DNA from: Edaphobacter aggregans
GTDB taxonomy: Bacteria > Acidobacteriota > Terriglobia > Terriglobales > Acidobacteriaceae
DNA: 32,000 bases
NCBI RefSeq assembly: GCF_003945235.1
Contig: NZ_RSDW01000001.1
Coordinates: forward strand, 2,340,001 to 2,372,000
Direction of reading: 5' to 3'
Shown: positions 1 to 14,027 of the stretch, in pieces
Layout of the letters: each line of letters begins with the position of its first letter
How positions within the stretch are numbered: position 1 is the stretch's first letter
Translations under genes and position numbers: made by a program
The notes under the pieces: generated by a model
The model's database searches: none
What the model saw: only the letters and a program-made list of their open reading frames with translations
What the model was told of the DNA's origin: nothing

Positions 1-59
1 GCCTCCACAAAATCCATCGTGTTGCCTCATTCTAACCAGCCGCGCCAGGCCGAAACCCC

Positions 60-569
60 CTACTCCTTGTCATACACAGTTTTCGTATCGAACTCCCCCG
101 CACTCATCGACACATGCGTCGCCTTCCGCAACACCTTTCTATCCCCCGAGAGCGAGTAGCTGGCCTTCAGCGTCCCCTCCTCCCCCTGAAAACTCACCTT
201 CTCCGTAACCACCAGCACCGGCCCCTGCCACTCCCCCTTCACACTCAGCACCCGAAACGGCGCATCGTCGGCAAACGACCCCTTCGCCAGCGGCATCTCC
301 GCTCCACCCACTTGAAACCGCAGCGTGTAATGCTGCTTCCCCTGCTCCCGCTCCAGCGTAATCTCAATCGCGAACTCATCGCCCGCCTGCTTCACCACCT
401 CGCTCTGCCGAATCGGCGGAGGCGCCTCTCCAAAATCGCTCTGCGCTACATTCAGCTTCCACGTCCCATTCATGTCAGGCTTCGACGCGGCACGCACCCC
501 ACCGCCCTGCGCAAACCCCGTCATCGCCACGCCAACCAGCAGCAAGGCAAGGCAGGAGATCTTTCTCAT
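60..569 (-). CDS. Small secreted protein of unknown function (Sec signal peptide)
   Basis: ORF 60..575. N-terminus M(SM)RKISCLALLLVGVAMTGFAQ looks like a signal peptide. On the minus strand GGAGG lies 6 nt before the second ATG (569), so 569 is preferred over 575. No family recognised. Confidence 0.6.
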   Translation of the reverse strand: MRKISCLALLLVGVAMTGFAQGGGVRAASKPDMNGTWKLNVAQSDFGEAPPPIRQSEVVKQAGDEFAIEITLEREQGKQHYTLRFQVGGAEMPLAKGSFADDAPFRVLSVKGEWQGPVLVVTEKVSFQGEEGTLKASYSLSGDRKVLRKATHVSMSAGEFDTKTVYDKE

Positions 570-602
570 GGACATCCTCCGTAATTAGGTTATACTTGAC
601 AC

Positions 603-616
603 TGTCATGAATGACA
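603..616. promoter_or_regulatory. Inverted repeat TGTCAT-GA-ATGACA overlapping the padR start codon; candidate PadR auto-operator
   Basis: Perfect 6+6 palindrome read directly. TGGACA (569-574), 16 nt, TATACT (591-596) just upstream would give a nearly leaderless padR mRNA. The function is an inference. Confidence 0.3.
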
Positions 617-1107
617 TAATAGTCTTAAGCCTGCTACTCGAGGGCCCCAAACACGGATACCGCCTCAAACAGGACGCCGCCATGTTCGCAGAGCAGCAGC
701 AACTCCACAACAACACCATCTACCCCCTTCTTAAACGCTTCCTCAAAAGCGGCTGGATCACCCAGCAGGAAGCCAACGGTGAACGCGGCCAGACTCGCCT
801 CCTCTACGCCCTCACCCCCACCGGCAAAAAAATCCTCGTCGACAAGGTCGCCGATTTCTCCGACGCCGACGTAATCAATCCGCATGCCTTTCGCCTCCGC
901 GTCGGTCTCTTCGGCCTGCTCGACAGCCCAACCCGTGAGCGCATCCTCCGCCTCCGCGACGACCATCTCGCCGCCCGCCTCGACCGCATCCACCAGATCG
1001 CCAAGGCCCACATCATCGAAGGCTGGTCCGCCACTACGATGGACCACGTCCTCAAAGAAATTCAACTCGAACGTAAGTGGATCTCCCAACTCATGACCCA
1101 AATCTAA
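607..1107 (+). CDS. PadR-family transcriptional regulator
   Basis: N-terminal winged-helix signature LSLLLEGPKHGYRL...IYPLLKRFLKSGWI...RLLYALTPTGKK typical of PadR, with a helical C-terminal extension. Confidence 0.85.
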   Translation: MNDIIVLSLLLEGPKHGYRLKQDAAMFAEQQQLHNNTIYPLLKRFLKSGWITQQEANGERGQTRLLYALTPTGKKILVDKVADFSDADVINPHAFRLRVGLFGLLDSPTRERILRLRDDHLAARLDRIHQIAKAHIIEGWSATTMDHVLKEIQLERKWISQLMTQI

Positions 1108-1136
1108 ACCGCCTCCCAGACAAGGAGAAACCCAAC

Positions 1137-1706
1137 ATGCCATCCGTCACCCTGTGGAATGAAACCAACTCCCTCTGGCTCCTCTTCGCCGTCTACTTCG
1201 TCGCCAGCATGCGTCGCATCCAGGTAAAGCGTTCGGTCCCGCTGCCTTCGTTTGAGCGCGTCTGCCTCCTGCTGACCACGGCCCTCCTCTTCTTCCCTCG
1301 CACTCATATCTCTTTCCTGGCAAATCGCTTTCATTCCAGCCGGGCCATCGGCATCTTCGGCCTCGTTCTCACGATCCTTGGCCTTGCCTTCGCCGCCTGG
1401 GCCCGTGACGTCCTGGGCCGCAACTGGAGCGGTCGCGTCGTCATCCAGGTCGACCACCAACTCATCACCGTTGGCCCCTACGCCTACGTCCGGCACCCGC
1501 TCTACACCGGCCTCATCACCGCTCTCGCCGGCACGGCACTCATCTCCGGCGACGTCGGCTCCCTCCTTGGCTTTCTCATCGCCATCAACATCTTCCGCCT
1601 CAAGGCGCACCGCGAAGAACAGCTTCTCGAGACCGAGTTCGGCGCCACCTACTCAACCTATCGCGCCCACACCGGAGGCATCCTTCCCCGCATCGCCCAC
1701 GTCTAG
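1137..1706 (+). CDS. Isoprenylcysteine carboxyl methyltransferase (ICMT)/phospholipid methyltransferase-family membrane protein
   Basis: Several hydrophobic helices and the family motif GPYAYVRHPLYTG. AAGGAG lies ~9 nt upstream of ATG 1137. The track ORF starting at 1077 overlaps the padR 3' end and is less likely. Confidence 0.8.
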   Translation: MPSVTLWNETNSLWLLFAVYFVASMRRIQVKRSVPLPSFERVCLLLTTALLFFPRTHISFLANRFHSSRAIGIFGLVLTILGLAFAAWARDVLGRNWSGRVVIQVDHQLITVGPYAYVRHPLYTGLITALAGTALISGDVGSLLGFLIAINIFRLKAHREEQLLETEFGATYSTYRAHTGGILPRIAHV

Positions 1707-1812
1707 CAGCGCTCGCTCAAAGTCACGCCCCGCCTCGCCTGCTTCACCACCTCGCTCTGCCGAATCGGTGGCGGAGCCTCCCCAAAGTCGCTCTGCGCTA
1801 CATTCAGCTTCC
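1703..1812 (-). pseudogene. Truncated paralog fragment of the 60..569 secreted-protein gene
   Basis: Bases 1736-1812 repeat 384-460 with only a few mismatches. The minus-strand reading gives KLNVAQSDFGEAPPPIRQSEVVKQA, identical to the intact gene. It then diverges (RRGVTLSERC-stop) and has no start codon upstream. Confidence 0.6.
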
Positions 1813-1962
1813 GGACTCTGCGGATTGTCTTAAGTGAGCTTCATGAAGCTATCAGACTTTATGGACCTTCGTTGCGGTAGGGTGGAAGACTTCCTAGTGA
1901 CGTAGGCGTGATGCTACATCCCTCAACACTTCTGGAGTGACCAAATCTCAGATAAGTGTTGT

Positions 1963-3693
1963 CTACGAACCAGTCTGCACACGCCGCAGCTCTTCTGACA
2001 GCAGAATCGCATCCGCAATCTCCCGCATCGATTTGCGACGTTGGCGACTTTCTTTATGCATCATCTGGTAGGCATCGTCTTCGCTCAGGGAGAGATCCCT
2101 TTGCAAAATGCTCTTAGCTCTATCCACTGCCTTCCGCGTTTCCAGTCTGTTCGATAACTGTGAATTCTCCGTCTCCAACCGCGCCCGCTCGATCTCTGCG
2201 CCTACCAGATAGCCAAGCGTCGAAAGCAATCGGACCTCATGCGTCGTGTGTTTGTAAGACAACCTGTGCTGCAGGTTGATAACACCCACCACTCTTCCCG
2301 CACACGTAATTGGAGTACACAACATCGCCTCGAAGTGGTCTTCAGGAATGTTCTTGAACGCCTTGAACCGCGGATCGTTGGAAGCACCCGAAGCGATCGC
2401 CACCGGCTGCCTGTATTTTGCGACCCATCCTGTTACTCCCTGCCCGATCTGAATGCCCACCTGATCGACAAGATCAGCGTGGGGATTTTTCGAAGCGCGC
2501 ATCACCAGGTTCTCGCCCTCAAGCACATAGACAAAACAAGAATCGCAGGGAATGACGCTCGAGATGAAGCCAACAATCCGGTCAAGCACCAGGTGAAGCG
2601 AATCAGCCGCGGCAATCCGGCTGCTGATCTCGTGCAGAAAATCAATCTGCATCAACCCATCGCGGAATCCGGCCATAGTAGGAGTGGAAGCCGCCACGCG
2701 CCTTACGGGCTTCTGTGTGTCTATTTCATCGACATCTGACACATCAGCATCCGGCTCTACGCTCTCAGAAAACACCGCTTCAATCTTGCGATTCCGTTTC
2801 TCCTCCAGCAGCCGGCCCGCATACTGCGCGGCCTCATTAACCAGAAATCCCATCTTCGGACGAGAGGGTTCAAAGTCCGGTTGAATTCCGTAATGCGCCA
2901 GCTCCTCTGACGTAGTAGGCCCAATGGACAGCACGACCACCGATTGCAATGCCCCCCGCAACTGCTCCGCGACACCCATCTGCTCGGCCACCTGGAACAT
3001 ATGAATCACCTGCACGGCCGTCATAAACAGCACCACGTCGATCACGCCGTTCAGCAGGCCCAGCACACTCTCGCGCAGTGGCTGCAGGTCTTCTGGCAGC
3101 GCCCACTGATACACCGGCACCTTTGAGAGCCTGCGGCTGCGACTGCTCAACTCAGCAAGAAACTCTGGGTTCGAAGCTCCATATTCCTGAACCGCAATGC
3201 TCATCGTGGAGACTGAATCGCCATAGGTCTCGTCGATAGCCCGCAGCAGTTCTCGCCACGTGCTGGGCTCCTCGGAGACGACATCCAGGGGAACCTTCAA
3301 CTCTCGCAGCGCGGTTGCGGGCTTCGCTCCTCGTGCCGCGATCTTGACCTTGCGCAGAGCGTCAAGAAACTCTTCTCCATCAAAGCGCGTCTGCACGATG
3401 TTGAGCATGGTTCGAACACCCACACCCGTCATAAAGACCACAAGATCGAACTCTCCCCGCAGCAGCCCCTCGGCAAACTCCAATGCCTCCGCGTTCGACT
3501 CGAGACTAACCTCACGCATGGCGGGCACGACAATCGCTTCGCCGCCGTAAGTGCGAATGAGTTTTTCAACCTCTTTCGCGCGGCGGGACTCGAGTGAAAG
3601 GACACGGAGTCCTTTGAAGCTTGCGTGCGCCACAGGTCCTCCAATCGGGTGTCGGGTGTCTCCTACCGTGCCTTCAGGGGCAGCGTTCATCAA
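1963..3693 (-). CDS. HemD-like (uroporphyrinogen-III synthase fold) / GAF / ANTAR RNA-binding antiterminator-type regulator
   Basis: N-terminal ~270 aa resembles HemD (LRVLSLESRRAKE...VVFMTGVGV...VLFMTAVQV...SIGPTTSEEL). The central GAF domain has (VTGWVAKYRQPVAI...GVINLQHR). The C-terminus has a coiled coil plus ANTAR (RKAVDRAKSILQRDLSLSEDDAYQMMHKESRQRRKSMREIADAIL). Confidence 0.8.
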   Translation of the reverse strand: MMNAAPEGTVGDTRHPIGGPVAHASFKGLRVLSLESRRAKEVEKLIRTYGGEAIVVPAMREVSLESNAEALEFAEGLLRGEFDLVVFMTGVGVRTMLNIVQTRFDGEEFLDALRKVKIAARGAKPATALRELKVPLDVVSEEPSTWRELLRAIDETYGDSVSTMSIAVQEYGASNPEFLAELSSRSRRLSKVPVYQWALPEDLQPLRESVLGLLNGVIDVVLFMTAVQVIHMFQVAEQMGVAEQLRGALQSVVVLSIGPTTSEELAHYGIQPDFEPSRPKMGFLVNEAAQYAGRLLEEKRNRKIEAVFSESVEPDADVSDVDEIDTQKPVRRVAASTPTMAGFRDGLMQIDFLHEISSRIAAADSLHLVLDRIVGFISSVIPCDSCFVYVLEGENLVMRASKNPHADLVDQVGIQIGQGVTGWVAKYRQPVAIASGASNDPRFKAFKNIPEDHFEAMLCTPITCAGRVVGVINLQHRLSYKHTTHEVRLLSTLGYLVGAEIERARLETENSQLSNRLETRKAVDRAKSILQRDLSLSEDDAYQMMHKESRQRRKSMREIADAILLSEELRRVQTGS

Positions 3694-3797
3694 ACTATGA
3701 AATCGTAAGCAGGAGGAGATTTCTTAGATTCTAGCCGTGGTACGTCGATGAAGCAAAGAATAAACTTTGCGCCAGCTCCGCGCCGTCTCTTCCCCAT

Positions 3798-4634
3798 TCA
3801 GAATGTGAGGCGTCCAGTGATCACAAGGCCGTGGTTATAGCTGTGAAAGCTGGAGGTAGCGATCTGCATGCCGGTTCCCAGTACCAGTCCCAGCCTGTCC
3901 CTGGGGTCACGCCGGAGCTTGATCTTACTCATCATGATTCCCGGTGTCAGAAAGGTCTGGTTCTTTCCGTTGTTCGCGCCGCCATGATAGTAGCTCGAAT
4001 TCACCTCGAGCTCTGGCCACAGATAGTTTCCAACTTTGTACTGCGCAACGGTGTTCCACGAGATTGTTCTGCCAATCGTCGTCACCGAACCCGTCGGTAG
4101 AATTCCACCGATCGCCGATTGCACATCAAAGCGGCCGAAGCCCTTTCCTCCCACCACGGTCGGCGTAATCGTCGAGACGGCCGTCCCATTCTTGTAGCTT
4201 CCCGTCGGCACACTAAATGCCACCTGCACCGCTGTCGAATAGTTGCCATTTTCTTTATTACCAGCGAACGGCCGGTACTTGCCGACAACAGAAAAGTCTC
4301 CCGCGCCATCCTGCACCTTCGGCGTGTTGTGTTCGATATAAGCCGGAAAGTTGATGTCGACCTCGGTTGCGGCGAACGGAATCAGGTTGACTCCCTTTCC
4401 GTTGCCATAGTTCCACGTCTCTGTGTGCGTCGATGTGTACTGCCGCACAAAATCGAAGCGCGCCAACTGCACGATGACGGAGGACGGAGCCACCACAGGC
4501 ACGACCCACCCCGGCTGTGCTGCAGACGTAGCTCTCACGCGGTCCTGCCAGGAATGAAAGAAACTCGTCTGAGCAAAGACCGTGGAACAGGCGAGCGAAA
4601 AAAATAAAGCAACCGAAGTCTTAACCCTCGTCAT
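3798..4634 (-). CDS. Outer-membrane beta-barrel channel (MetA-pathway/phenol-degradation-like OMP family guess)
   Basis: Signal peptide MTRVKTSVALFFSLACSTVFAQ, alternating beta-strand pattern, and a C-terminal aromatic residue (..ITGRLTF). AGGAGG lies 4 nt upstream of ATG 4634, which is preferred over the track start 4691. Confidence 0.65.
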   Translation of the reverse strand: MTRVKTSVALFFSLACSTVFAQTSFFHSWQDRVRATSAAQPGWVVPVVAPSSVIVQLARFDFVRQYTSTHTETWNYGNGKGVNLIPFAATEVDINFPAYIEHNTPKVQDGAGDFSVVGKYRPFAGNKENGNYSTAVQVAFSVPTGSYKNGTAVSTITPTVVGGKGFGRFDVQSAIGGILPTGSVTTIGRTISWNTVAQYKVGNYLWPELEVNSSYYHGGANNGKNQTFLTPGIMMSKIKLRRDPRDRLGLVLGTGMQIATSSFHSYNHGLVITGRLTF

Positions 4635-4974
4635 ATGTCCTCCTGAAAAATTTTTCGTTAGACCCTTCGAATACATGCGATCGGGAGTCATCGCGTGAGA
4701 CCTGCGGCTTTGCGAGCAGCATGGTTTCGCAGAGAATCAGCTAGACTGCAGGCACTTGCAGCGCAGTCATTCGAGGGATGTTGGATAGGGGCAGCGGTAC
4801 GTTCACCCACCTGGGTAATTCCATACCGGTGCGCGTCCATGACACGTCAAGGTGTCAAATTTGTGGAGAGAAGTTATCGTATCGTGCCACGGCTTTCCAA
4901 TTCCGGCAAGCCCGTTTTTGCAGCACGCAAGATTTTCACTTGCGAGACGTCTCATTTCGCGCTACGATCCAACC

Positions 4975-4992
4975 ACGTCCACCGCAGGACGT
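4975..4992 (+). promoter_or_regulatory. Hairpin ACGTCC-ACCGCA-GGACGT in the nas leader (hexaloop with A at position 1 and G at position 4, ANTAR-substrate-like)
   Basis: Read directly, and followed by ACTTTTCA. Only one such hairpin was found, whereas the published ANTAR substrate has two, so this is tentative. Confidence 0.2.
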
Positions 4993-5227
4993 ACTTTTCA
5001 AGCAGCCACGCACCACCCTGATGTGCGACGGCTCGCAAATCTCCAAATATCACAAGCTCCTTGATGAGCACTGATACGCCCTGATCGTGATTCGCAGCAT
5101 CATGTGCTGCGAGGCTTTCTGGCTTACACGTCTCTAATCGGCCCTCGCCTCACTGGCTTTGGCTTCAGCGACAGATCAGTTCCGGTACGCACACCACACC
5201 GGTTGCAGTCTCTCAAGGGGTTTCGAA

Positions 5228-7024
5228 ATGAACACCAGCACCACCATCAATCCGGCCGAGTTCACCCACGAACAGAAGCAGTACCTTCAAGGCTTCTTCG
5301 CCGGCATCGTTCAGCGCGGCATCGCCCCCTTTGTCGGTCACGCTGCAAACGGGCTCATCACCAACGACCCCGCATCCCGCCTCCCGAATCACGCCGCAGC
5401 CGACACCGAACCAACCTGGCACGACACCCCCATCTCCGATCTCTCAAGAGAAGAACGTTGGAAGTACGAGCAGGATCCCTTCGCCATCTGGGACAAGATC
5501 CTTCAGTACAGCAACCAGAACCAGCCGCCCACCGACGACGACCGTTTCCGCTTCAAGTACTTCGGCCTCTTCCACGTCGCCCCCGCGCAGGACTCCTTCA
5601 TGCTCCGCCTTCGCGTCCCCGGCGGCATTCTCGCGTCGCATCAACTACGCGGCCTTGCGCAACTCGCCGAAGACCACGGCTGTGGCCGCGCTGATCTCAC
5701 GACGCGCAGTAATCTTCAGCTTCGCGAGTTCCAACCCCGCGATATCGTCCGCGTCCTCCATCGCATCCAGGCCCTCGGCCTCACCTCCCGCGGCTCCGGC
5801 GCCGACAACATCCGTAACATCACCGCCTCGCCAATCACCGGCCTCGACCCAAACGAACTCCTCGACGTAGCCCCTCTCGCCGAAGCCATGCAGGCCTACA
5901 TCACCAACTCGCGCGACATGTTCGACCTTCCGCGCAAATTCAACATCGCCTTCGACAACGGCGGCGCCATCTCCACCGTCGCCGACACCAACGACATCGG
6001 CTTCATTGCCGTCCGCATCAACGAAGGGCACACGATCCCCGCAGGCATTTACTTCCGCGTCCTTCTCTGCGGTATCACGGGTCACCGCCAGTTCGCCACA
6101 GACTGCGGCCTCCTCCTGCGGCCCGACGAGACCGTCGCCGTCGCCGCCGCAATGATCCGCGTCTTCATCCAGCACGGCGACCGCACCGACCGCAAAAAAG
6201 CTCGCCTCAAATACCTCATCGACCGCTGGGGCTCTAACGGCTCAGGCATGGCTCGCTTCCTCGAAGAAACCGAAAAACTCCTCGCCTTCCCGCTCATCCG
6301 CGTCCCGGCCTCCGAGTGCGAACCACGCGGCCCCATCAACCGTTCCGCGCATCTCGGCATTCATCCGCAAGCACAACCGGGCCTCCACTACATCGGCATC
6401 GCTATCCCGGTAGGCCATCTCCCCGCGGCGCAGATGCGTTCTCTCGCCAACATAGCCGATCAGTTCGGCACAGGCGAACTCCGCCTCACCGTCTGGCAAA
6501 ACCTAATCATCCCCAACATCCCCACCGAACACCTCGAAGCCGCCACGCAAGCCATCCAGAACGCCGGCCTCGATTACAAAGCCAGCACAGTCCTCGCCGG
6601 AACCGTTGCCTGCACGGGCAACAAAGGCTGCCGCTTCGCCGCTACCGACACCAAATCCCACGCAGTCGCACTCGCCCGCCATCTTGACGCGCGCTTCCCC
6701 ATCCTCGACCAGCCCATCAACCTTCACGTCACCGGCTGCCACCACTCCTGTGCGCAGCACTACATCGGCGACCTCGGCCTCATGGGCGTCAAAGTCTCGG
6801 GCGAAGAAGGCTACCAGGTCCTCATCGGCGGCGGTGTCGACAACGACCAGGGCCTGGCTCGCGAACTCATCTCCTCAATCCGCTTCACCGATCTCGCCCC
6901 CAAGCTCGAAAGCCTCTTCACCGCCTACACGTTACAACGTCAGGATGACGAAACCTTCCTCCACTTCACGCGCCGTCACGACATCGCCACCCTTCAGTCG
7001 TTCTGCGAAAAGGAGAAGGCCTAA
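5228..7024 (+). CDS. nirA: Siroheme/4Fe-4S nitrite (or sulfite) reductase hemoprotein, NirA/CysI family
   Basis: Two nitrite/sulfite reductase repeats. Cluster ligands are C-x5-C (CTGNKGC) and C-x3-C (CHHSC), and FMLRLRVPGGIL is present. ATG 5228 is preceded by AAGGGG. The nitrate-assimilation context favours nitrite. Confidence 0.8.
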   Translation: MNTSTTINPAEFTHEQKQYLQGFFAGIVQRGIAPFVGHAANGLITNDPASRLPNHAAADTEPTWHDTPISDLSREERWKYEQDPFAIWDKILQYSNQNQPPTDDDRFRFKYFGLFHVAPAQDSFMLRLRVPGGILASHQLRGLAQLAEDHGCGRADLTTRSNLQLREFQPRDIVRVLHRIQALGLTSRGSGADNIRNITASPITGLDPNELLDVAPLAEAMQAYITNSRDMFDLPRKFNIAFDNGGAISTVADTNDIGFIAVRINEGHTIPAGIYFRVLLCGITGHRQFATDCGLLLRPDETVAVAAAMIRVFIQHGDRTDRKKARLKYLIDRWGSNGSGMARFLEETEKLLAFPLIRVPASECEPRGPINRSAHLGIHPQAQPGLHYIGIAIPVGHLPAAQMRSLANIADQFGTGELRLTVWQNLIIPNIPTEHLEAATQAIQNAGLDYKASTVLAGTVACTGNKGCRFAATDTKSHAVALARHLDARFPILDQPINLHVTGCHHSCAQHYIGDLGLMGVKVSGEEGYQVLIGGGVDNDQGLARELISSIRFTDLAPKLESLFTAYTLQRQDDETFLHFTRRHDIATLQSFCEKEKA

Positions 7025-7026
7025 TC

Positions 7027-8817
7027 ATGCAGACTGTTCCCTTCGTCCCCGATAACGCTCCCTTCACACCCGAGCAGCGCAGCTGGCTCAACGGTCTCCT
7101 CGCCGGAATCTACTCCTCCGCGCCCGCCGTCAGTCCGGTCGCGGACCCGCCGCCTTCACTCAAGATCGCCGTTCTCTACGCCTCGCAATCCGGCACCGCC
7201 GAGGGCCTGGCCCGCAAGGTCGCCAAAGACCTCAAGGCCAAAGGCCACATCGCCTCGCTGCTCACACTCGAAGGCTACACACCCGCGTCACTCCTCGCCG
7301 AAACCTACGCCATCATCATCGCCAGCACCTACGGCGAAGGCGAAGCCCCCGACTCCGTCCGTCCCTTCTACGAACAGCTCTGCCTCGAGCACTTCCCCTG
7401 CTGCGAGAATCTCTCCTACGCCGTCCTCGCACTCGGCGACTCCACCTACGAGCACTTCTGCAAATTCGGTATCGACCTCGACAACAAGCTCGCCTCTCTC
7501 GCGGGCACGCGCATCTGCGACCGCATCGATTGCGATGTCGACCTCGACGAAAGCTTCACCCAGTGGAAGACCACGCTCTACGCCCGCATCGACGACATCG
7601 TCGCCGCACGCCCAGCACGCACCGCACCCTCATCGTCCATCATCACCGCACCTTCTTCTGTCAGCGAACCCACAGCCCCTTCCCACACCCGCGACAATCC
7701 ATTTCTAGCTCCGCTCGTCGACAAGCGCCCCCTCACCCGCGACATCTCCAGCAAACTCACCCTGCATCTCGCCTTCAACATCAGCGACTCCACCCTCCGC
7801 TACGAAGCCGGCGACGCATGCGGCGTCATCCCCCGCAACGACATTCATCTCGTAGAAGAGATCCTCCACACCCTCAACTTCAGCGGCTCCGTCCCCGTAC
7901 AGCTCCCCAAATCGGGAACCACCACCTTACTCGACGCGCTTCTCCATCACCTTCAGATCACCCGTCTCACGCGGAAGATGATCGAAGCCTACGCCACCAT
8001 CGGCCGACACACAGCCCAGTGTCAGCCGCTCTTTCACCTACTCGTACCCGAGCAGCAAGCCCACCTCGAAAAGTACACCTACGACCGCGGCCTCATCGAT
8101 CTCCTGCACGACTACCCCGGCATCCTCCACGAACCCGCCGACCTGGTCGCGATGCTACCCAGGCTCTCCCCACGTCTCTACTCCATCTCCTCCAGCCCCA
8201 GCGCCCACGCCGGACAGATCCACACCACCGTCGCCGTCGTCCGCTACCGCGCCCATAACCGCGACCGCGGAGGCGTCTGTTCCACTCTCCTCTCCGACCG
8301 CACCAACACTGGCGAATCTCTACCCGTCTACATCCAGCCCAACAAGCGCTTCCGCCTCCCGTCCGACCCCGCCGCACCCATCATCATGATCGGCCCCGGC
8401 ACCGGCATCGCTCCCTTCCGCGCCTTCCTCCACGAGCGCCGCGCCCTCAACCACACCGGCCGCAACTGGCTCTTCTTCGGCGAACGCTCCGCCGCTACCG
8501 ACTTCCTCTACCGCGACGAGCTTCAGTCCATGCACACCGACGGCCACCTCACACATCTCGACCTCGCCTTCTCCCGTGATCAGGACCGCAAAATCTACGT
8601 GCAGGACCGCATGCTCGAACAAGCCCCAACATTCTGGCAATGGCTGCAGGACGGAGCCAGCGTCTACGTCTGCGGCGACGCCTCGCGCATGGCCAAAGAC
8701 GTCGACGCCACCCTCCACACCATCGCCGAACAGCAGGGCCACCTCACCCGCGAATCCGCTACCGAGTACATACACCAGCTCAAGGAACACCACCGCTACC
8801 ACCGCGACGTCTACTAA
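7027..8817 (+). CDS. CysJ-like NADPH-dependent diflavin reductase (flavodoxin + FAD/NADPH ferredoxin-reductase domains)
   Basis: Flavodoxin domain KIAVLYASQSGTAEG, FAD motif RLYSISSSP, NADPH motifs GPGTGIAPFRAF and YVCGDASRMAKDV, C-terminal ..RDVY. AAGGAGAAGG RBS, with only 2 nt after the nirA stop. Confidence 0.85.
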   Translation: MQTVPFVPDNAPFTPEQRSWLNGLLAGIYSSAPAVSPVADPPPSLKIAVLYASQSGTAEGLARKVAKDLKAKGHIASLLTLEGYTPASLLAETYAIIIASTYGEGEAPDSVRPFYEQLCLEHFPCCENLSYAVLALGDSTYEHFCKFGIDLDNKLASLAGTRICDRIDCDVDLDESFTQWKTTLYARIDDIVAARPARTAPSSSIITAPSSVSEPTAPSHTRDNPFLAPLVDKRPLTRDISSKLTLHLAFNISDSTLRYEAGDACGVIPRNDIHLVEEILHTLNFSGSVPVQLPKSGTTTLLDALLHHLQITRLTRKMIEAYATIGRHTAQCQPLFHLLVPEQQAHLEKYTYDRGLIDLLHDYPGILHEPADLVAMLPRLSPRLYSISSSPSAHAGQIHTTVAVVRYRAHNRDRGGVCSTLLSDRTNTGESLPVYIQPNKRFRLPSDPAAPIIMIGPGTGIAPFRAFLHERRALNHTGRNWLFFGERSAATDFLYRDELQSMHTDGHLTHLDLAFSRDQDRKIYVQDRMLEQAPTFWQWLQDGASVYVCGDASRMAKDVDATLHTIAEQQGHLTRESATEYIHQLKEHHRYHRDVY

Positions 8818-8856
8818 ACCTTCTTCTCAAAGCCAGCGACCTAAGGAACTGAAGCT

Positions 8857-10461
8857 ATGACGCTCCCGCTCCACGAACTCGCATACTCCGAATCAGCGAA
8901 CCCCATCGTTCGCCTGACGGAAAACGGCCTCGAGATCTTTCCTGCAGGCCCACCGCAACCCGAGGTCATCACCTCTCTCATCCCCTCACGCCCCCTCCAA
9001 CCCGGCGAGCAGTACCGCTTCCACTTCAACATGACGAAGTGCATCGGCTGCCGTTCCTGCGAAGTCGCCTGCAACGAGCAGAACGGCAACCCTGCCGATC
9101 TCCGCTGGCGCCGCATCGGCGAAATCGAAGGCGGCACCTGGCCCACCACCGTGCGTCATTACCTTTCCATGGGCTGCAACCACTGCCTCAGCGCCGACTG
9201 CGCACGCGGCTGCCCCGTCGATGCCTACACAAAAGATCCCGTTACCGGCATCGTCCTCCACTCCGCCGAAGCCTGCATCGGCTGCCAGTACTGTGTCTGG
9301 AACTGCCCCTACTCCGTCCCGCAGTTCAACCCTGAGCGCGGCGTCGTCGGCAAATGCGACATGTGCCACGGCCGTCTCACCTCCGGCCTCGAGCCCGCCT
9401 GCGTCAACGCCTGTCCCGAGAACGCCATTGAAATCGAAATCGTCGATCAGCTTGAGTGGCGCAGCGATTACGCCGCCGCCAACGCTCCCGGCATGCCCTC
9501 CGCCGGACACACCATCTCCACCACACGCATCACGCTCCCTGAAAACTCAGTCGCCACCCTCGAGCGCGTCGACATCGAAACCCTCCAGCCGGAGCATCCG
9601 CACTGGTCCCTCGTTTGGATGACCTCACTCATCCAACTCTCCGCCGGAACCCTCGTCGCCGCCTTGCTCTCGCGACACTCCGGCCCCATCGCTCTCACAC
9701 TCATCCTCGCCCTCACGGCCTTCACGCTCAACATCTCCGTCCTTCACCTCGGCCGTCCCGCCTACGCCTGGCGCGCGCTCAAAATGTGGCGGCGCTCCTG
9801 GCTCTCCCGCGAAGTCCTCCTCTTCGGACTCTTCTTCTCCACGCTCACCCTCTTCACCGCTGCCGCATGGCTCGCGGCTATACACGTACTACCCTTCGCT
9901 GCGATCCTCCTGCCAGCCCTCCAACTCCTTACACCTGTCCTCGGTCTCGCAGGCATCTTCGCCAGCGCACGTCTCTATCTCGTTCCCGCCCGTCCCGCGT
10001 GGAACACACCTCACACGCCTATCGATTTCTTCCTCAGCTCCGCCGTTCTAGGCTGCTCTGCGATGCCGCTGCTCATCCGCGCCGCTGGCATGTTGCATGC
10101 ACTTCCGCAGCTTCAGTCAATCGCTCTGCCACGCTGGGTGCCGAACTTCCCGCTCTGGCCGCTGATCATCACATCCGCTCTCTGGATGCTCAACCACATC
10201 GTCCGCACCATCCGCCTCCATCACTCCGTAAGCTACGAGCGACGAGCCTCCGCATCGCTCCTCAACACCTACAACCTCCGCGGAACCTTCCTCGTCTCCT
10301 TCGCCTTTGTCGGCCTCGCCATTCTTCTCTCCGTCGCAGGCCAACCTCTCTTCGCACTACCCGCCGCACTCGCCGGAGTCATCTCCGCCCGCTATCTCTT
10401 CTTCGTCTCTGTCGTGCCGCTCAACATGGCCCTCACCTTCGTAAGAACGGCCCACGCATGA
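8857..10461 (+). CDS. Fusion protein: DmsB/NrfC-type four-cluster ferredoxin domain + DmsC-like 8-helix membrane anchor
   Basis: Four Cys groups: CIGCRSCEVAC, CNHCLSADCARGCP, CIGCQYCVWNCP, CDMCHGR..ACVNACP. About 8 hydrophobic helices follow from residue ~250. No twin-arginine signal. The stop overlaps the next start (ATGA at 10458-10461). Confidence 0.75.
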   Translation: MTLPLHELAYSESANPIVRLTENGLEIFPAGPPQPEVITSLIPSRPLQPGEQYRFHFNMTKCIGCRSCEVACNEQNGNPADLRWRRIGEIEGGTWPTTVRHYLSMGCNHCLSADCARGCPVDAYTKDPVTGIVLHSAEACIGCQYCVWNCPYSVPQFNPERGVVGKCDMCHGRLTSGLEPACVNACPENAIEIEIVDQLEWRSDYAAANAPGMPSAGHTISTTRITLPENSVATLERVDIETLQPEHPHWSLVWMTSLIQLSAGTLVAALLSRHSGPIALTLILALTAFTLNISVLHLGRPAYAWRALKMWRRSWLSREVLLFGLFFSTLTLFTAAAWLAAIHVLPFAAILLPALQLLTPVLGLAGIFASARLYLVPARPAWNTPHTPIDFFLSSAVLGCSAMPLLIRAAGMLHALPQLQSIALPRWVPNFPLWPLIITSALWMLNHIVRTIRLHHSVSYERRASASLLNTYNLRGTFLVSFAFVGLAILLSVAGQPLFALPAALAGVISARYLFFVSVVPLNMALTFVRTAHA

Positions 10462-12680
10462 GCAACTCTATCTTCACGCGCATCAAGCGACTCACAGGCA
10501 TCGACACACGCCGCGAAAAATACGCCTACGCCAAAGACCCCGTCTTCGGTCACATCTCCAAATCGCGCGTCGCCGAGAAATGGGTCAAGACCACCTGCGG
10601 CTACTGTTCCGTCGGTTGCGGCATGCTCGTCGGCGTGCGCGAAAACAAAGCCGTCGCCGTACGCGGCAACCCCGACCATCCCGTCAATCGCGGCAAGCTC
10701 TGCCCCAAAGGTCTCTCCGAACATCACATCCTCGACTCACCCGGCCGCGCAAAACAACCGCTCCTGCGCAAGAACGGCGTCCTCACTCCTGTCTCGTGGG
10801 ACGAAGCACTCGACACGATGGTCGCCCGCTTCCGCGACATTCAGCAGCGTCACGGCAACGAGTCCCTCGGCGTCGTCGGCACCGGCCAACTCCTCACCGA
10901 AGAGTGCTACACCCTCGGCAAGCTCGTTCAACTCGGCTTCCGCACCCGCAACAACGACGGCAACACCACCCTCTGCATGGCCTCTGCCGTCTCCGGCTAC
11001 AAACTCTCCTTTGGCTCCGACGGCCCGCCCGGCTCCTACGCCGACATGGAGACCGCCGACCTCATCCTCCTCATCGGCGCCAACATCGCCGACAACCATC
11101 CCATCCTCTGCCACCGCGTCGATCGCACCTCGCCCGGAACAAAACCCCGCACCCTCATCGTTGTCGACCCACGCGTCACCAAGACCGCCATGATGGCCGA
11201 CATCCATCTGCCCGTCAAACCCCGCAGCGACATCGCTCTCCTCAACGGCATCGCTCACATCCTCATCCGCGAAGGCCTCATCGATCGCGACTACATCGCC
11301 CGCCACACCACCGGCTTCGAACAATTCGCAAACTTCGTCGCCGCCTTTACTCCCGCACACGTAGCCGCCATCACCGGCCTCACCGAAGAGACCATCATCA
11401 ACACGGCATGGCTCTACGGCAAAGCAAAATCCGCCTTCATCGGCTGGACCATGGGCGTCAATCACTCCACGCAAGGCGCTGTCACCGTCGCCGCCATCAA
11501 CAACCTCGCCCTCATCACCGGCAACATCGGACGCTCCGGCGCAGCGCCCTTCTCCATCACCGGCCAATGCAACGCCATGGGCACGCGCGAAACCGGCTTT
11601 ACCTCATCGCTCCCCGGCTACCGCAAATTTGATAATCCGCAGGACCGCGAAGACCTCGCGCGCATCTGGAACATCCCCGTCGAACGCATTCCGTCCGCGC
11701 GAGGCCTCGCCTACCCCGACATCATCGAAGCCGCCGTACAAGGCCGCATCAAAGCCCTCTGGTTCGTCGCCACCAATCCCGCCGTCTCCTTCCCCAACGC
11801 GAAGCTCCTCGACCACGCCCTCCGCAGCGTCGAGTTCCTCGTCGTACAGGACGGCTTCCACCCCACGCCCACCAGCGACTACGCCCATCTCGTCCTCCCC
11901 GCCGCCATCTGGGGCGAAAAGCAAGGAACCTACACCAACTCCGAACGCCGCGTCTCCAAGGTCAACCCCGCCGTCATCCCTCCCCGCGAAGCACGCCCCG
12001 ACTTCGACATCTTTCTCGACATCGCACAACGCCTCGGAGTACGCAATGAGCTTTACCCCGGCTGGACATCGACACACGACGCCTTCCTGGAATGGCAGCG
12101 CGTCTCCGCCGGCCGCATGTGTGACTACTCGAAATTCACCTGGCAGCAGATCGAAGATGCCAACGGCCTCCAATGGGGCGGCACCTCGCTCTACACCGAC
12201 GGCATCTTCCCCACCGAAGACGGACGCGCCCGTCTCCACAGCGTTCCCTGCGATCCCTTCACCGAGCAGCCCGACTCCAACTTCGACTTCATCCTCAACA
12301 CAGGCCGCACCGTCGAACACTGGCACACCCGCACCAAGACCGCCGAGGTCGGAATTCTCAACGACATGGTCCCCAACGCATGGCTCGAGATGAATCCCAC
12401 CGACGCCGACCGCCTCGAGCTCAAACCTCACGACCGCGTCACCGTCCGCAGCCGTCGCGGTGCCGTCGCCGACATCGAGCTCCGCATCACCGGCATCGTC
12501 GCTCCCGGTCAGGTCTTCATGCCCTTCCACTTCTCCGAGACCAACTCCAACATCGTCACCCTCGGAGCCTTCGATCCCATCTCCCGCGAACCCAACTTCA
12601 AACAGTGCGCCGTCCGCATCGAGCGGACCCCCATCCGCGACCGTCGAAACGCCTCGCCCCCTCGAACTCAGCGACAGTAG
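10458..12680 (+). CDS. nasA: Molybdopterin oxidoreductase, assimilatory nitrate reductase catalytic subunit (Nas/NarB type)
   Basis: N-terminal 4Fe-4S motif CGYCSVGCG..C(PKG), the Nap/Nas-type Mo-ligand region TTLCMASAV, and MGD-binding segments. No Tat signal. The true start is ATG 10458; the track ORF from 9615 is an out-of-context upstream extension. Confidence 0.85.
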   Translation: MSNSIFTRIKRLTGIDTRREKYAYAKDPVFGHISKSRVAEKWVKTTCGYCSVGCGMLVGVRENKAVAVRGNPDHPVNRGKLCPKGLSEHHILDSPGRAKQPLLRKNGVLTPVSWDEALDTMVARFRDIQQRHGNESLGVVGTGQLLTEECYTLGKLVQLGFRTRNNDGNTTLCMASAVSGYKLSFGSDGPPGSYADMETADLILLIGANIADNHPILCHRVDRTSPGTKPRTLIVVDPRVTKTAMMADIHLPVKPRSDIALLNGIAHILIREGLIDRDYIARHTTGFEQFANFVAAFTPAHVAAITGLTEETIINTAWLYGKAKSAFIGWTMGVNHSTQGAVTVAAINNLALITGNIGRSGAAPFSITGQCNAMGTRETGFTSSLPGYRKFDNPQDREDLARIWNIPVERIPSARGLAYPDIIEAAVQGRIKALWFVATNPAVSFPNAKLLDHALRSVEFLVVQDGFHPTPTSDYAHLVLPAAIWGEKQGTYTNSERRVSKVNPAVIPPREARPDFDIFLDIAQRLGVRNELYPGWTSTHDAFLEWQRVSAGRMCDYSKFTWQQIEDANGLQWGGTSLYTDGIFPTEDGRARLHSVPCDPFTEQPDSNFDFILNTGRTVEHWHTRTKTAEVGILNDMVPNAWLEMNPTDADRLELKPHDRVTVRSRRGAVADIELRITGIVAPGQVFMPFHFSETNSNIVTLGAFDPISREPNFKQCAVRIERTPIRDRRNASPPRTQRQ

Positions 12681-12749
12681 CAAACCACGATTGCCACCCG
12701 TTGCACCACTTGTTGACCACCAAAATCCACACGGAGAACACCAAAAATC

Positions 12750-14027
12750 ATGGCCAACTTCAAGACCTTCCTCAAGTCCGGGCACCCTCCCACCCTCCTA
12801 AGTGCCTTTCTTTACTTCGACTTCTCCTTCGCCGTGTGGGTGCTCAACGGAGCCATGGGCCCCTTCATCTCCGAACAGTTCCACCTGACCCCCGCCCAAA
12901 TCGGCTTAATGGTTTCGATTCCTACACTTGCGGGGGCTTTGATGCGTTTTCCTCTCGGCGTCCTCTCCCAATACATAGGCCGGAAGAACGCCGCCATCGT
13001 AGAAATGTCCGCCATCGTTATCTCACTGATATACGGATACTTATTCGTCAAAACCTTCCACGAAGTCCTGGCCATGGGCGTCCTTCTAGGCATCGCCGGA
13101 GCCAGCTTCGGCGTAGCTCTCTCCCTCGGCTCCGGCTGGTTTCCCCAACAATACAAAGGACTTGCGATGGGCATAGCCGGTGCAGGCAACAGCGGCACCG
13201 CCCTGGCCGCGCTCCTGGCCCCGCGCTTGGCCCAACACTACGGATGGCATCAAGTCTATGGATTCGCAGCACTTACCATGCTGCTCCCCCTCGCCGTCAT
13301 GATCATCTTCGCCAAAGAACCACCAGACGCCCACCACCAAACCCTGAAAGAACACCTCTCCTGCCTCTGGGAAAAAGACGGCTGGGCCTTTAACTCCATA
13401 TATATCATCACTTTCGGAGGCTTCCTCGGCCTCGCTACCTTCCTCCCATCCTTCTTCTACTCCCAATTCCATGTCACAAAAATTCAAGCCGGTTCCCTCA
13501 CCGTCCTAGCCACGCTAACTGGCTCATTAACAAGAGTTTTTGGTGGATGGCTAGCCGACCGAATAGGCGGAATTACCACGCTCTCGATCGTCTTTCTCGC
13601 CGCCACAGCCACTTTTTTAGGCCTAATATTTACCCCATCCCTCGCCACCACAACCATCCTTTTTATGCTCTGCTTCGCAGCCCTTGGAGCCGGTAACGGT
13701 GCCACTTTTCAACTAGTTCCGCTACGTTGGCCCTATTCCACCGCCGTCGCAGGCAGCATGATCGGCGAAATCGGAGCCCTGGGTGGCGGCATCCTTCCAA
13801 ACCTGCTGGGACAAACCAAACAGCACACCGGCTCATATGCCATTGGTTTTATCGTCTACGCCACACTAGCGCTCTCCGTCCTGGCCATGCTGCGCACCAT
13901 CTCAAAAAAATGGACACACACATGGGTGGAGGCCGGCGGACGCGCTGTGGTTCTAGTGCCAGAGACACCCGATCCAGCAGAAATAGGGTTTTCGAATCCG
14001 TCACTAGAAACACCTCTTGAAGTTTAA
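12750..14027 (+). CDS. narK: MFS nitrate/nitrite transporter (NNP/NarK family)
   Basis: 12-helix MFS with NNP-like segments (LLSAFLYFDFSFAVWVLNG, GAGNSGTA, GAGNGATFQLVP). Last gene of the nas operon. Confidence 0.8.
   Translation: MANFKTFLKSGHPPTLLSAFLYFDFSFAVWVLNGAMGPFISEQFHLTPAQIGLMVSIPTLAGALMRFPLGVLSQYIGRKNAAIVEMSAIVISLIYGYLFVKTFHEVLAMGVLLGIAGASFGVALSLGSGWFPQQYKGLAMGIAGAGNSGTALAALLAPRLAQHYGWHQVYGFAALTMLLPLAVMIIFAKEPPDAHHQTLKEHLSCLWEKDGWAFNSIYIITFGGFLGLATFLPSFFYSQFHVTKIQAGSLTVLATLTGSLTRVFGGWLADRIGGITTLSIVFLAATATFLGLIFTPSLATTTILFMLCFAALGAGNGATFQLVPLRWPYSTAVAGSMIGEIGALGGGILPNLLGQTKQHTGSYAIGFIVYATLALSVLAMLRTISKKWTHTWVEAGGRAVVLVPETPDPAEIGFSNPSLETPLEV

Follow-up and report, generated by a model that had tools for sequence, protein, structure and literature searches.

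A DmsB-DmsC fusion protein strictly linked to one clade of NasA-type nitrate reductases: a probable cytoplasm-facing quinol:nitrate oxidoreductase

A 32,000-nucleotide stretch of the Edaphobacter aggregans genome (contig NZ_RSDW01000001.1, positions 2,340,001 to 2,372,000 of the forward strand; referred to here as the window) carries five closely spaced plus-strand genes between 5.1 and 14.0 kb: nirA, a CysJ-like gene, a gene encoding a DmsB-DmsC fusion protein, nasA, and narK (Table 1). The subject of this analysis is the pair formed by the fusion protein and NasA. These two proteins are a fixed module, strictly linked to one NasA clade. We consider it likely that the pair is a membrane-bound, cytoplasm-facing quinol:nitrate oxidoreductase that serves the first step of nitrate assimilation, an activity that we infer from the features described below.

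A DmsB-DmsC fusion encoded directly ahead of nasA

The nasA ATG and the fusion TGA overlap at the junction of the two genes (gcccacgcATGAgcaac), as the first-pass annotation of this DNA had read, and the ATGA couples the fusion gene and nasA translationally. An AAGGAA Shine-Dalgarno-like motif is located 8 nucleotides (nt) 5′ of the fusion ATG, and a gap of 39 nt separates the CysJ-like gene from the fusion gene. A consensus scan within the operon found no terminator signal above shuffled background. The real start of nirA is probably the ATG at 5228. In relatives, narK is kept downstream of the module.

Table 1. Positions of genes, domains, and candidate residues in the window
Feature	Positions	Strand	Basis or remark
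Divergent regulator gene	1963..3693	-	tblastn: conserved in at least 20 loci of near relatives
NirA-family sirohaem/[4Fe-4S] nitrite reductase	5159..7024	+	NCBIfam NF007126, 816 bits vs cut-off 523
CysJ-like diflavin NADPH reductase	7027..8817	+	Pfam Flavodoxin_1, FAD_binding_1, NAD_binding_1
DmsB-DmsC fusion protein, 534 amino acids	8857..10461	+	Intact open reading frame; Pfam, NCBIfam, Cys motifs, AlphaFold2
DmsB-like four-[4Fe-4S] domain	9004..9456	+	16 Cys ligands, family conservation
DmsC-type anchor domain, N terminus predicted cytoplasmic	9601..10458	+	Pfam DmsC, profile alignment, lysine-plus-arginine (K+R) bias
His297 codon, aligns with E. coli DmsC His65, LHLG(R/S)P motif	9745..9747	+	Candidate quinol-site residue
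Glu319 codon, aligns with E. coli DmsC Glu87, SWLSRE motif	9811..9813	+	Candidate quinol-site residue
ATGA overlap, fusion stop codon and nasA start codon	10458..10461	+	Read from the sequence
NasA-type molybdenum-bis(pyranopterin guanine dinucleotide) (Mo-bisPGD) nitrate reductase catalytic subunit, 740 amino acids	10458..12680	+	Intact open reading frame, Pfam domains
NarK-family major facilitator superfamily (MFS) nitrate/nitrite transporter	12750..14027	+	TIGR00886, E 6e-70

The fusion protein begins with an unstructured N terminus of about 45 residues, followed by a DmsB-type iron-sulfur (FeS) domain (residues ~50 to 200), a linker (200 to 249), and an eight-helix DmsC-type anchor (250 to 517). 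Pfam matches were to Fer4_11 (residues 101 to 192, E 5.7e-22) and to DmsC (residues 282 to 491, 50.7 bits against a cut-off of 22.3); NrfD was not among the Pfam families listed for the anchor. The top NCBIfam match was DMSO_dmsB (TIGR02951; residues 52 to 200, E 1e-46), with a score of 158.9 bits, under the equivalog cut-off of 214. Sixteen cysteines fall into four groups (C62/65/68/72, C107/110/115/119, C140/143/146/150, and C167/170/182/186) with the same spacing as in E. coli DmsB. Conservation was assessed in 38 diverse fusion homologues with identities down to 28%. Fifteen of the 16 ligands were invariant in this set, and the remaining one, C65, was conserved in at least 90% of the homologues. 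AlphaFold2, run on the family alignment, gave a model that was confident over the whole chain (mean predicted local distance difference test score, 86.4; predicted template modeling score, 0.85), in which the FeS domain and linker are followed by eight long helices between residues 250 and 517. Foldseek searches matched the N-terminal half to ArrB, FdnH, and PsrB and the C-terminal half to PsrC and ActC. These results bear out the earlier description of the protein as a four-cluster DmsB-type domain fused to an anchor of about eight DmsC-like helices. Together with NasA, the locus encodes each part of a DmsABC-type FeS molybdoenzyme: a Mo-bisPGD subunit with its own cluster (FS0), a four-cluster module, and an anchor domain.

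Fusions of a more distant clade (for example, P0175, P0188, and P0230) share an N-terminal motif, LIDxLLxEQQxLTAVERF(S/A)xxH…P(A/S)Q…YRxLIP. The window fusion does not carry this LIDxLLxEQQ motif.

Linkage of the fusion to one clade of NasA

The fusion family comprises at least 5919 matches, and 790 clusters at 50% identity were counted with E<1e-30. By record label, its members include Acidobacteriota, Planctomycetota, Dormibacterota, Vulcanimicrobiota, Spirochaetota, and Omnitrophota. Linkage was scored in 80 loci from species-representative genomes, 75 of which hold DNA for at least half a nasA. NasA was encoded directly downstream of the fusion, on the same strand, in 75/75. The nasA N terminus was detectable in 78 of the 80 loci, and the contigs of the other two stop within 300 nt. 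The distant clade (33 to 37% identity), which includes the planctomycete Calycomorphotria hydatis, has the same gene order and the same stop/start overlap. Since the arrangement recurs in thousands of homologues, with the same gene order in all examinable loci, it is not due to chance.

Sampling the class evenly (201 genomes) gave the same picture. The fusion was found at 54% identity or more in 15 genomes, and NasA at 65% or more in those same 15, adjacent in each. The remaining NasA-like matches reached at most 44% identity and had no close fusion. In one further genome, G382, a fusion of 36% identity stands with a NasA of 41%, and genome G405 has a truncated 64% nasA at a contig end. In a maximum-likelihood tree of NasA, all 17 sampled fusion-linked sequences fell on one side of a branch (ultrafast bootstrap, 90; Shimodaira-Hasegawa-like approximate likelihood ratio test, 92) that separates them from a fusion-free NasA-like group of the same phylum, with the motif CMVSAA, and from one NapA-like sequence; the tree has long branches, and its deeper order is uncertain. 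The co-occurrence of fusion and nasA, a point raised by the first-pass annotation, was complete in both directions in every sample. A tblastn search of a plasmid collection returned separate DmsB and DmsC genes only, with no full-length fusion.

Several individual loci were recorded alongside these counts. Acidipila rosea DSM 103428 (L014) has the whole operon. In G110, at first sight an exception to the linkage, about 40 amino acids from the start of the fusion stand as a remnant before a nasA with an internal TAG (L091, G110:C1:4033501-4035594 plus upstream sequence), and the fusion and nasA appear to have been lost together in this decayed locus. Behind the fusion-free NasA-like genes of the same phylum (L092, L093, and L095 to L097; motifs RLCMVSAA and GQGNGQGGREHG) lies a short open reading frame similar to the fusion in its FeS domain only (about 30 to 36% identity over residues 55 to 260). 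A metagenome-assembled genome labelled "uncultured Bifidobacterium sp." (L066) holds a fusion-nasA locus whose identities to the window are 47% and 65%; this contig has probably been binned or labelled wrongly.

NasA itself has the Pfam domains Molybdop_Fe4S4, Molybdopterin, and Molydop_binding. Its FS0 ligands are C47, C50, C54, and C82, and its molybdenum ligand, Cys173, is followed by Met174. Among solved structures, its best match is the monomeric Desulfovibrio desulfuricans NapA (E 2e-138). The Mo-ligand motif LCMASAV is identical in the two proteins, and the active-site Arg is conserved. NasA fell under every NCBIfam equivalog cut-off for NasA, NasC, NapA, and Fdh-alpha. Scores were 495 bits against a cut-off of 1000 for NasA_Halo, 492 against 1100 for NasC, 444 to 456 against 904 to 930 for the NapA models, and 163 against 778 for dmsA_ynfE; the nearest structures were NapA and formate dehydrogenases. 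Since it lies below all the equivalog cut-offs, this NasA makes up a subfamily of its own. It is a cytoplasmic enzyme of the Nap/Nas lineage with a Cys ligand, encoded in a nitrate-assimilation cluster.

The catalytic subunit might instead not be a nitrate reductase at all, and the pair could be, for example, a cytoplasmic formate:quinone oxidoreductase. The highest NCBIfam score of NasA was in fact to Fdh-alpha (TIGR01591; 558.8 bits), though this is below the cut-off of 666, no Nas or Nap equivalog cut-off was reached, and the Joint Genome Institute annotates the fusion as a "formate dehydrogenase iron-sulfur subunit." Formate dehydrogenases carry selenocysteine or Cys followed by His at the Mo-ligand position. 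Here the ligand is followed by Met, within the motif shared with the closest solved relative, and in every lineage the operon holds NarK plus NirA or NirB/NirBD. The Cys-Met motif and the gene context led us to reject a formate dehydrogenase and leave this assignment highly improbable.

Fusion-linked NasA proteins share the motif SITGQCNAMG and, before FS0, an N-terminal extension of about 40 amino acids with no hydrophobic region (residues 1 to 46; window 10458-10595). The extension reads (R/K)(I/L)(K/R)R(A/L)xGIDTR..Y.Y..DP.FGH...R(V/I)A..WVKTT, and many relatives have LRRALGIDTR. Its twin-arginine-like pair, with no hydrophobic region after it, is reminiscent of the remnant twin-arginine translocation (Tat) peptide of NarG. 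A NarJ/TorD chaperone, sought as a possible binder of the extension, was not found in the genome. The extension may dock onto the fusion.

Orientation of the module and source of its electrons

Positively charged residues were counted in the loops of the anchor in the 38 fusion homologues. Loops 2-3, 4-5, and 6-7 plus the C terminus had a mean of 12.7 K+R, against 1.9 for the other loops, and the bias had the same sign in 38/38. The same count for E. coli DmsC, whose N terminus is periplasmic, gave 3 against 8, so that the bias is reversed in the control. Neither the fusion nor NasA has a Tat or Sec signal. No RR motif with a hydrophobic region was found at the N termini of the 38 fusion homologues. 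Among 78 NasA partners, in a scan limited to aligned N termini, the top hydrophobic 12-mer before FS0 scored 0.3 at the median and at most 1.22; the signal peptide of E. coli DmsA, which carries SRRGLV, reached 1.57 on this scale. The claims that neither protein has a twin-arginine signal and that the FeS domain and the molybdoenzyme should face the cytoplasm were thus supported. The topology, export-signal, and co-occurrence checks suggested by the first-pass annotation all favored its reading.

The FeS domain and the quinol site are accordingly placed on the cytoplasmic side as a prediction from sequence. Because the FeS domain would lie in the cytoplasm, helix 1 would insert with its N terminus inside. 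The loop bearing the H297...E319 motif would also be cytoplasmic, on the side of the FeS domain, because of the charge distribution and the lack of signals. Because there is no export signal, the whole DmsBC module is predicted to sit upside-down relative to DmsABC, with the relative geometry of DmsBC and PsrBC preserved and the module flipped in the membrane. One feature could be read the other way. The conserved basic pair of the NasA extension (RIKRL here, LRRALG in relatives) is like a remnant Tat motif, and the complex would then face the periplasm, as DmsABC does, by an unrecognised export route. However, no hydrophobic region follows the pair, the fusion has no signal, the anchor charge bias is strongly reversed relative to DmsC in every homologue, and a NarK importer and cytoplasmic nitrite reductases go with the pair. 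A periplasmic orientation, rejected on the charge bias and the missing signals, is scarcely credible.

E. coli DmsC was added to the fusion-family alignment in order to map residues. In this profile alignment, H297, E319, Y374, W382, F391, and R512 of the fusion correspond to H65, E87, Y137, W145, F154, and R270 of DmsC, and all six are invariant in 38/38 fusion homologues. According to a passage in PMC13059093 that cites Geijer & Weiner 2004, the H65R substitution in DmsC inactivates DmsABC and E87 is important in menaquinol binding. Because the anchor residues map to H65 and E87 and stay invariant, the residues linked to quinol use in DmsC are, as judged from the alignment, precisely those retained in the fusion.

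The favored reading is a cytoplasm-facing quinol:nitrate oxidoreductase with the following path. Menaquinol would be oxidised at a DmsC-type site centred on His297 and Glu319, where helices 2 and 3 reach the cytoplasmic side. Electrons would then pass through clusters FS4, FS3, FS2, and FS1 of the fused DmsB-like domain to FS0 of NasA, and the Mo-bisPGD centre, with its Cys173 ligand, would reduce nitrate imported by NarK to nitrite. A separate NAD(P)H enzyme (NirA with the CysJ-like protein here, NirB or NirBD in other lineages) would take nitrite to ammonium. The usual quinone in descriptions of Acidobacteriaceae is menaquinone-8, and standard potentials (menaquinol, about -74 mV; nitrate, +420 mV) make electron transfer from the former to the latter strongly favorable. 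A four-cluster wire of about 40 Å is typical between the quinone site and the catalytic subunit in DmsABC-type molybdoenzymes. A plausible benefit is that electrons from NADH would pass the proton-pumping NDH-1 before reaching nitrate, unlike those used by a soluble NADH:nitrate reductase.

The neighbouring flavoprotein is the obvious competitor as a donor. NirA and CysJ are always adjacent and move as a unit, which is present as an inverted pair on the opposite strand in five loci (L049, L056, L065, L075, and L077). The unit is missing from most fusion-NasA loci, where CysJ is absent within 7 kb; in 5/5 such loci that were annotated, an NADH-type NirB or a NirB-NirD fusion together with an MFS transporter takes its place. 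The possibility that the CysJ-like reductase feeds NasA, left open by the first-pass annotation, is disfavoured because the nitrite reductase beside the module varies and the fusion-NasA pair is constant. The partner that stays with NasA throughout is therefore the fusion. The CysJ-like flavoprotein is best interpreted as serving NirA, in the pattern of CysJI, and is probably the partner of NirA and not of NasA. That nirA and the CysJ-like gene travel as a mobile pair is consistent with an NADPH:nitrite reductase of the CysJI type.

A related alternative keeps the fusion in the electron path and removes the quinol. Here, the fusion would be a relay and tether: a soluble NAD(P)H flavoprotein (CysJ-like in the window, NirB elsewhere) would reduce the FeS domain, which would reduce NasA, and the membrane domain would merely hold the enzyme beside the NarK transporter. 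The short gap between the CysJ-like and fusion genes agrees with this, as does the recurrence of the order CysJ-NirA-fusion-NasA in the distant clade, and diflavin-fed Nas enzymes such as mycobacterial NasN exist. However, the replacement of CysJ by NirB or NirBD in most loci would require one FeS domain to dock two unrelated flavoproteins, and the invariant DmsC quinol-use residues and the four-cluster wire would be superfluous for a passive tether. We regard a relay without quinol oxidation as unlikely. The path from quinol to molybdenum is favored because the fusion is constant and because a passive tether needs neither a quinol pocket nor a wire.

The complex could also be quinol fed and yet mainly dissimilatory, acting as a Nar-like terminal reductase or electron sink at low oxygen, with the assimilation genes only removing nitrite. 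The logic would be that of NarGHI with NarK (cytoplasmic active site, quinol donor, and MFS nitrate/nitrite transporter), and quinol oxidation downstream of NDH-1 would conserve energy. The window genome has no NarG above the cut-off (best NarG-model score, 49.8; window NasA, 18.9; cut-off, 1084), which also suits this role. It has no other DmsC domain, and the NasA query matched it only once at E<=1e-120, which makes another enzyme of the Nap/Nas type unlikely; these absences equally count in favor of the main reading. Yet the pair is always set among ammonium-forming assimilatory nitrite reductases (NirA/CysJ or NirB/NirBD) and NarK, near relatives also have a regulator gene beside it, no denitrification or Nrf genes lie nearby, and quinol oxidation on the cytoplasmic side would not by itself create a redox loop. 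A mainly dissimilatory role seems quite improbable on this evidence.

Several points weigh against a quinol-fed, assimilatory complex. We infer the physical contact of FS1 with FS0, quinol as the donor, and the physiological role; for the contact, the analogy is with DmsAB and PsrAB. The strict linkage shows partnership and not the electron source, and the residues shared with DmsC could be retained for structure rather than quinol binding. The CysJ-like flavoprotein is encoded directly upstream of the module here and in the distant clade (L082), and mycobacterial NasN shows that Nas enzymes can be supplied by a diflavin reductase. Most Acidobacteriaceae are aerobes, and to our knowledge quinol-dependent assimilation is without experimental precedent.

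A further, doubtful extension of the quinol-fed mechanism is that the inverted anchor provides a path by which both protons of the quinol leave for the periplasm, so that nitrate assimilation would itself generate proton-motive force. Polar residues common to DmsC-family anchors are invariant or nearly so in the fusions (Q260, S370, Y374, and R512, plus H297 and E319). As speculation, Q260, S370, Y374, and R512, with H297 and E319, are the candidates for such a path. If it existed, the large drop in potential from menaquinol to nitrate would be partly conserved, the enzyme would serve growth and respiration together, and it would represent a third type of energy-conserving nitrate reductase besides Nar and Nap.

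Observations on the surroundings of the operon complete the description of the locus. On the minus strand upstream (1963-4691), the regulator gene and an outer-membrane protein gene are divergent from the operon, and the latter is also conserved upstream of the operon in several near-relative loci. The regulator, the porin, and the operon may be one unit. GC skew is strongly negative across the operon (-0.28 to -0.37 per kb, window 1-14000), weakens past ~14 kb, and is positive past ~22 kb.

Comparison with known systems

In textbook schemes and recent surveys of the dimethyl sulfoxide reductase family, the nitrate reductases of assimilation are soluble and receive electrons from ferredoxin, flavodoxin, or NAD(P)H. 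Here, an entire clade of NasA has as its obligate partner a protein in which the FeS module is fused to a putative quinol anchor, and the fusion family has thousands of members. Public annotations of the fusion are generic ("DmsC/YnfH family molybdoenzyme membrane anchor subunit" or "formate dehydrogenase iron-sulfur subunit"), and full-text literature searches aimed at such a pairing, run largely outside the subscription journals, returned no published description of a DmsB-DmsC fusion paired with a Nas enzyme. In a phylogenomic survey (PMC7331816), the Nas/Nap/Aio/Fdh clade is explicitly said to have no association with canonical four-cluster or membrane-anchor subunits; the fusion-NasA module contradicts this statement. 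If the module is quinol fed, the energy and reductant cost of nitrate assimilation would change in abundant soil and peat bacteria, nitrogen assimilation would be linked to the state of the respiratory chain, and metagenomic counts of "nasA" would merge enzymes of different electron economies.

The NasA of the window shares several traits with Klebsiella NasA, Bacillus and Paracoccus NasC, and cyanobacterial NarB: all are Mo-bisPGD enzymes of the cytoplasm that have an N-terminal [4Fe-4S] cluster and a Cys ligand, and their genes accompany those for nitrite reduction and nitrate transport. Those classical enzymes are soluble and draw their electrons from ferredoxin, flavodoxin, or NAD(P)H subunits. 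In contrast, NasA here has an obligatory membrane FeS partner, falls below the NasA and NasC equivalog cut-offs, and belongs to its own group in the tree. The partner suggests, as far as the genes can indicate, that this NasA is not of the soluble type.

Like NarGHI, the module would reduce nitrate in the cytoplasm with quinol electrons carried by a multi-cluster FeS subunit, with NarK supplying nitrate. However, its proteins have at most a distant relationship to NarG, NarH, and the dihaem cytochrome b NarI, and NarI oxidises quinol at the periplasmic face, in a redox loop, whereas the DmsC-type site here is predicted to be at the cytoplasmic face. Monomeric NapA of D. desulfuricans offers the closest solved structure and an identical Cys-Met active-site motif. 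NapA proteins are exported by the Tat system and fed by NapB, NapC, or NapGH; NasA here has no signal and scores below the NapA cut-offs. The first-pass annotation had spoken of a third way, distinct from Nar and Nap, to connect nitrate reduction to the quinone pool. This is a fair description among nitrate reductases but not for molybdoenzymes in general, for which SoeABC provides a precedent.

With E. coli DmsABC, the module has in common the four-cluster Cys pattern of DmsB and a DmsC fold that retains the six conserved residues. DmsABC is Tat exported and faces the periplasm, whereas the fusion and NasA have no signal and the charge bias is inverted; moreover, B and C are fused here, and the partner is NapA/NasA-like and not DmsA. 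The closest architectural analogue is SoeABC of Allochromatium vinosum and Ruegeria pomeroyi, a membrane-bound Mo-bisPGD enzyme with cytoplasmic catalytic and FeS subunits and an eight-helix, haem-free anchor of the NrfD/PsrC/DmsC superfamily (PMC6335251). In both systems, the molybdenum, FeS, and anchor modules face the cytoplasm without signal peptides, as predicted here for the fusion and NasA. SoeA oxidises sulfite and passes electrons to quinone, while in fusion-NasA quinol would be the source and nitrate the acceptor. SoeB and SoeC are two polypeptides, and their counterparts here are fused; SoeC has been described as NrfD/PsrC-like, and the fusion anchor matches Pfam DmsC; and the catalytic subunit is of the Nap/Nas lineage and not SoeA-type. 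The module is widespread and is probably a DmsABC/SoeABC-style complex built on an assimilatory nitrate reductase.

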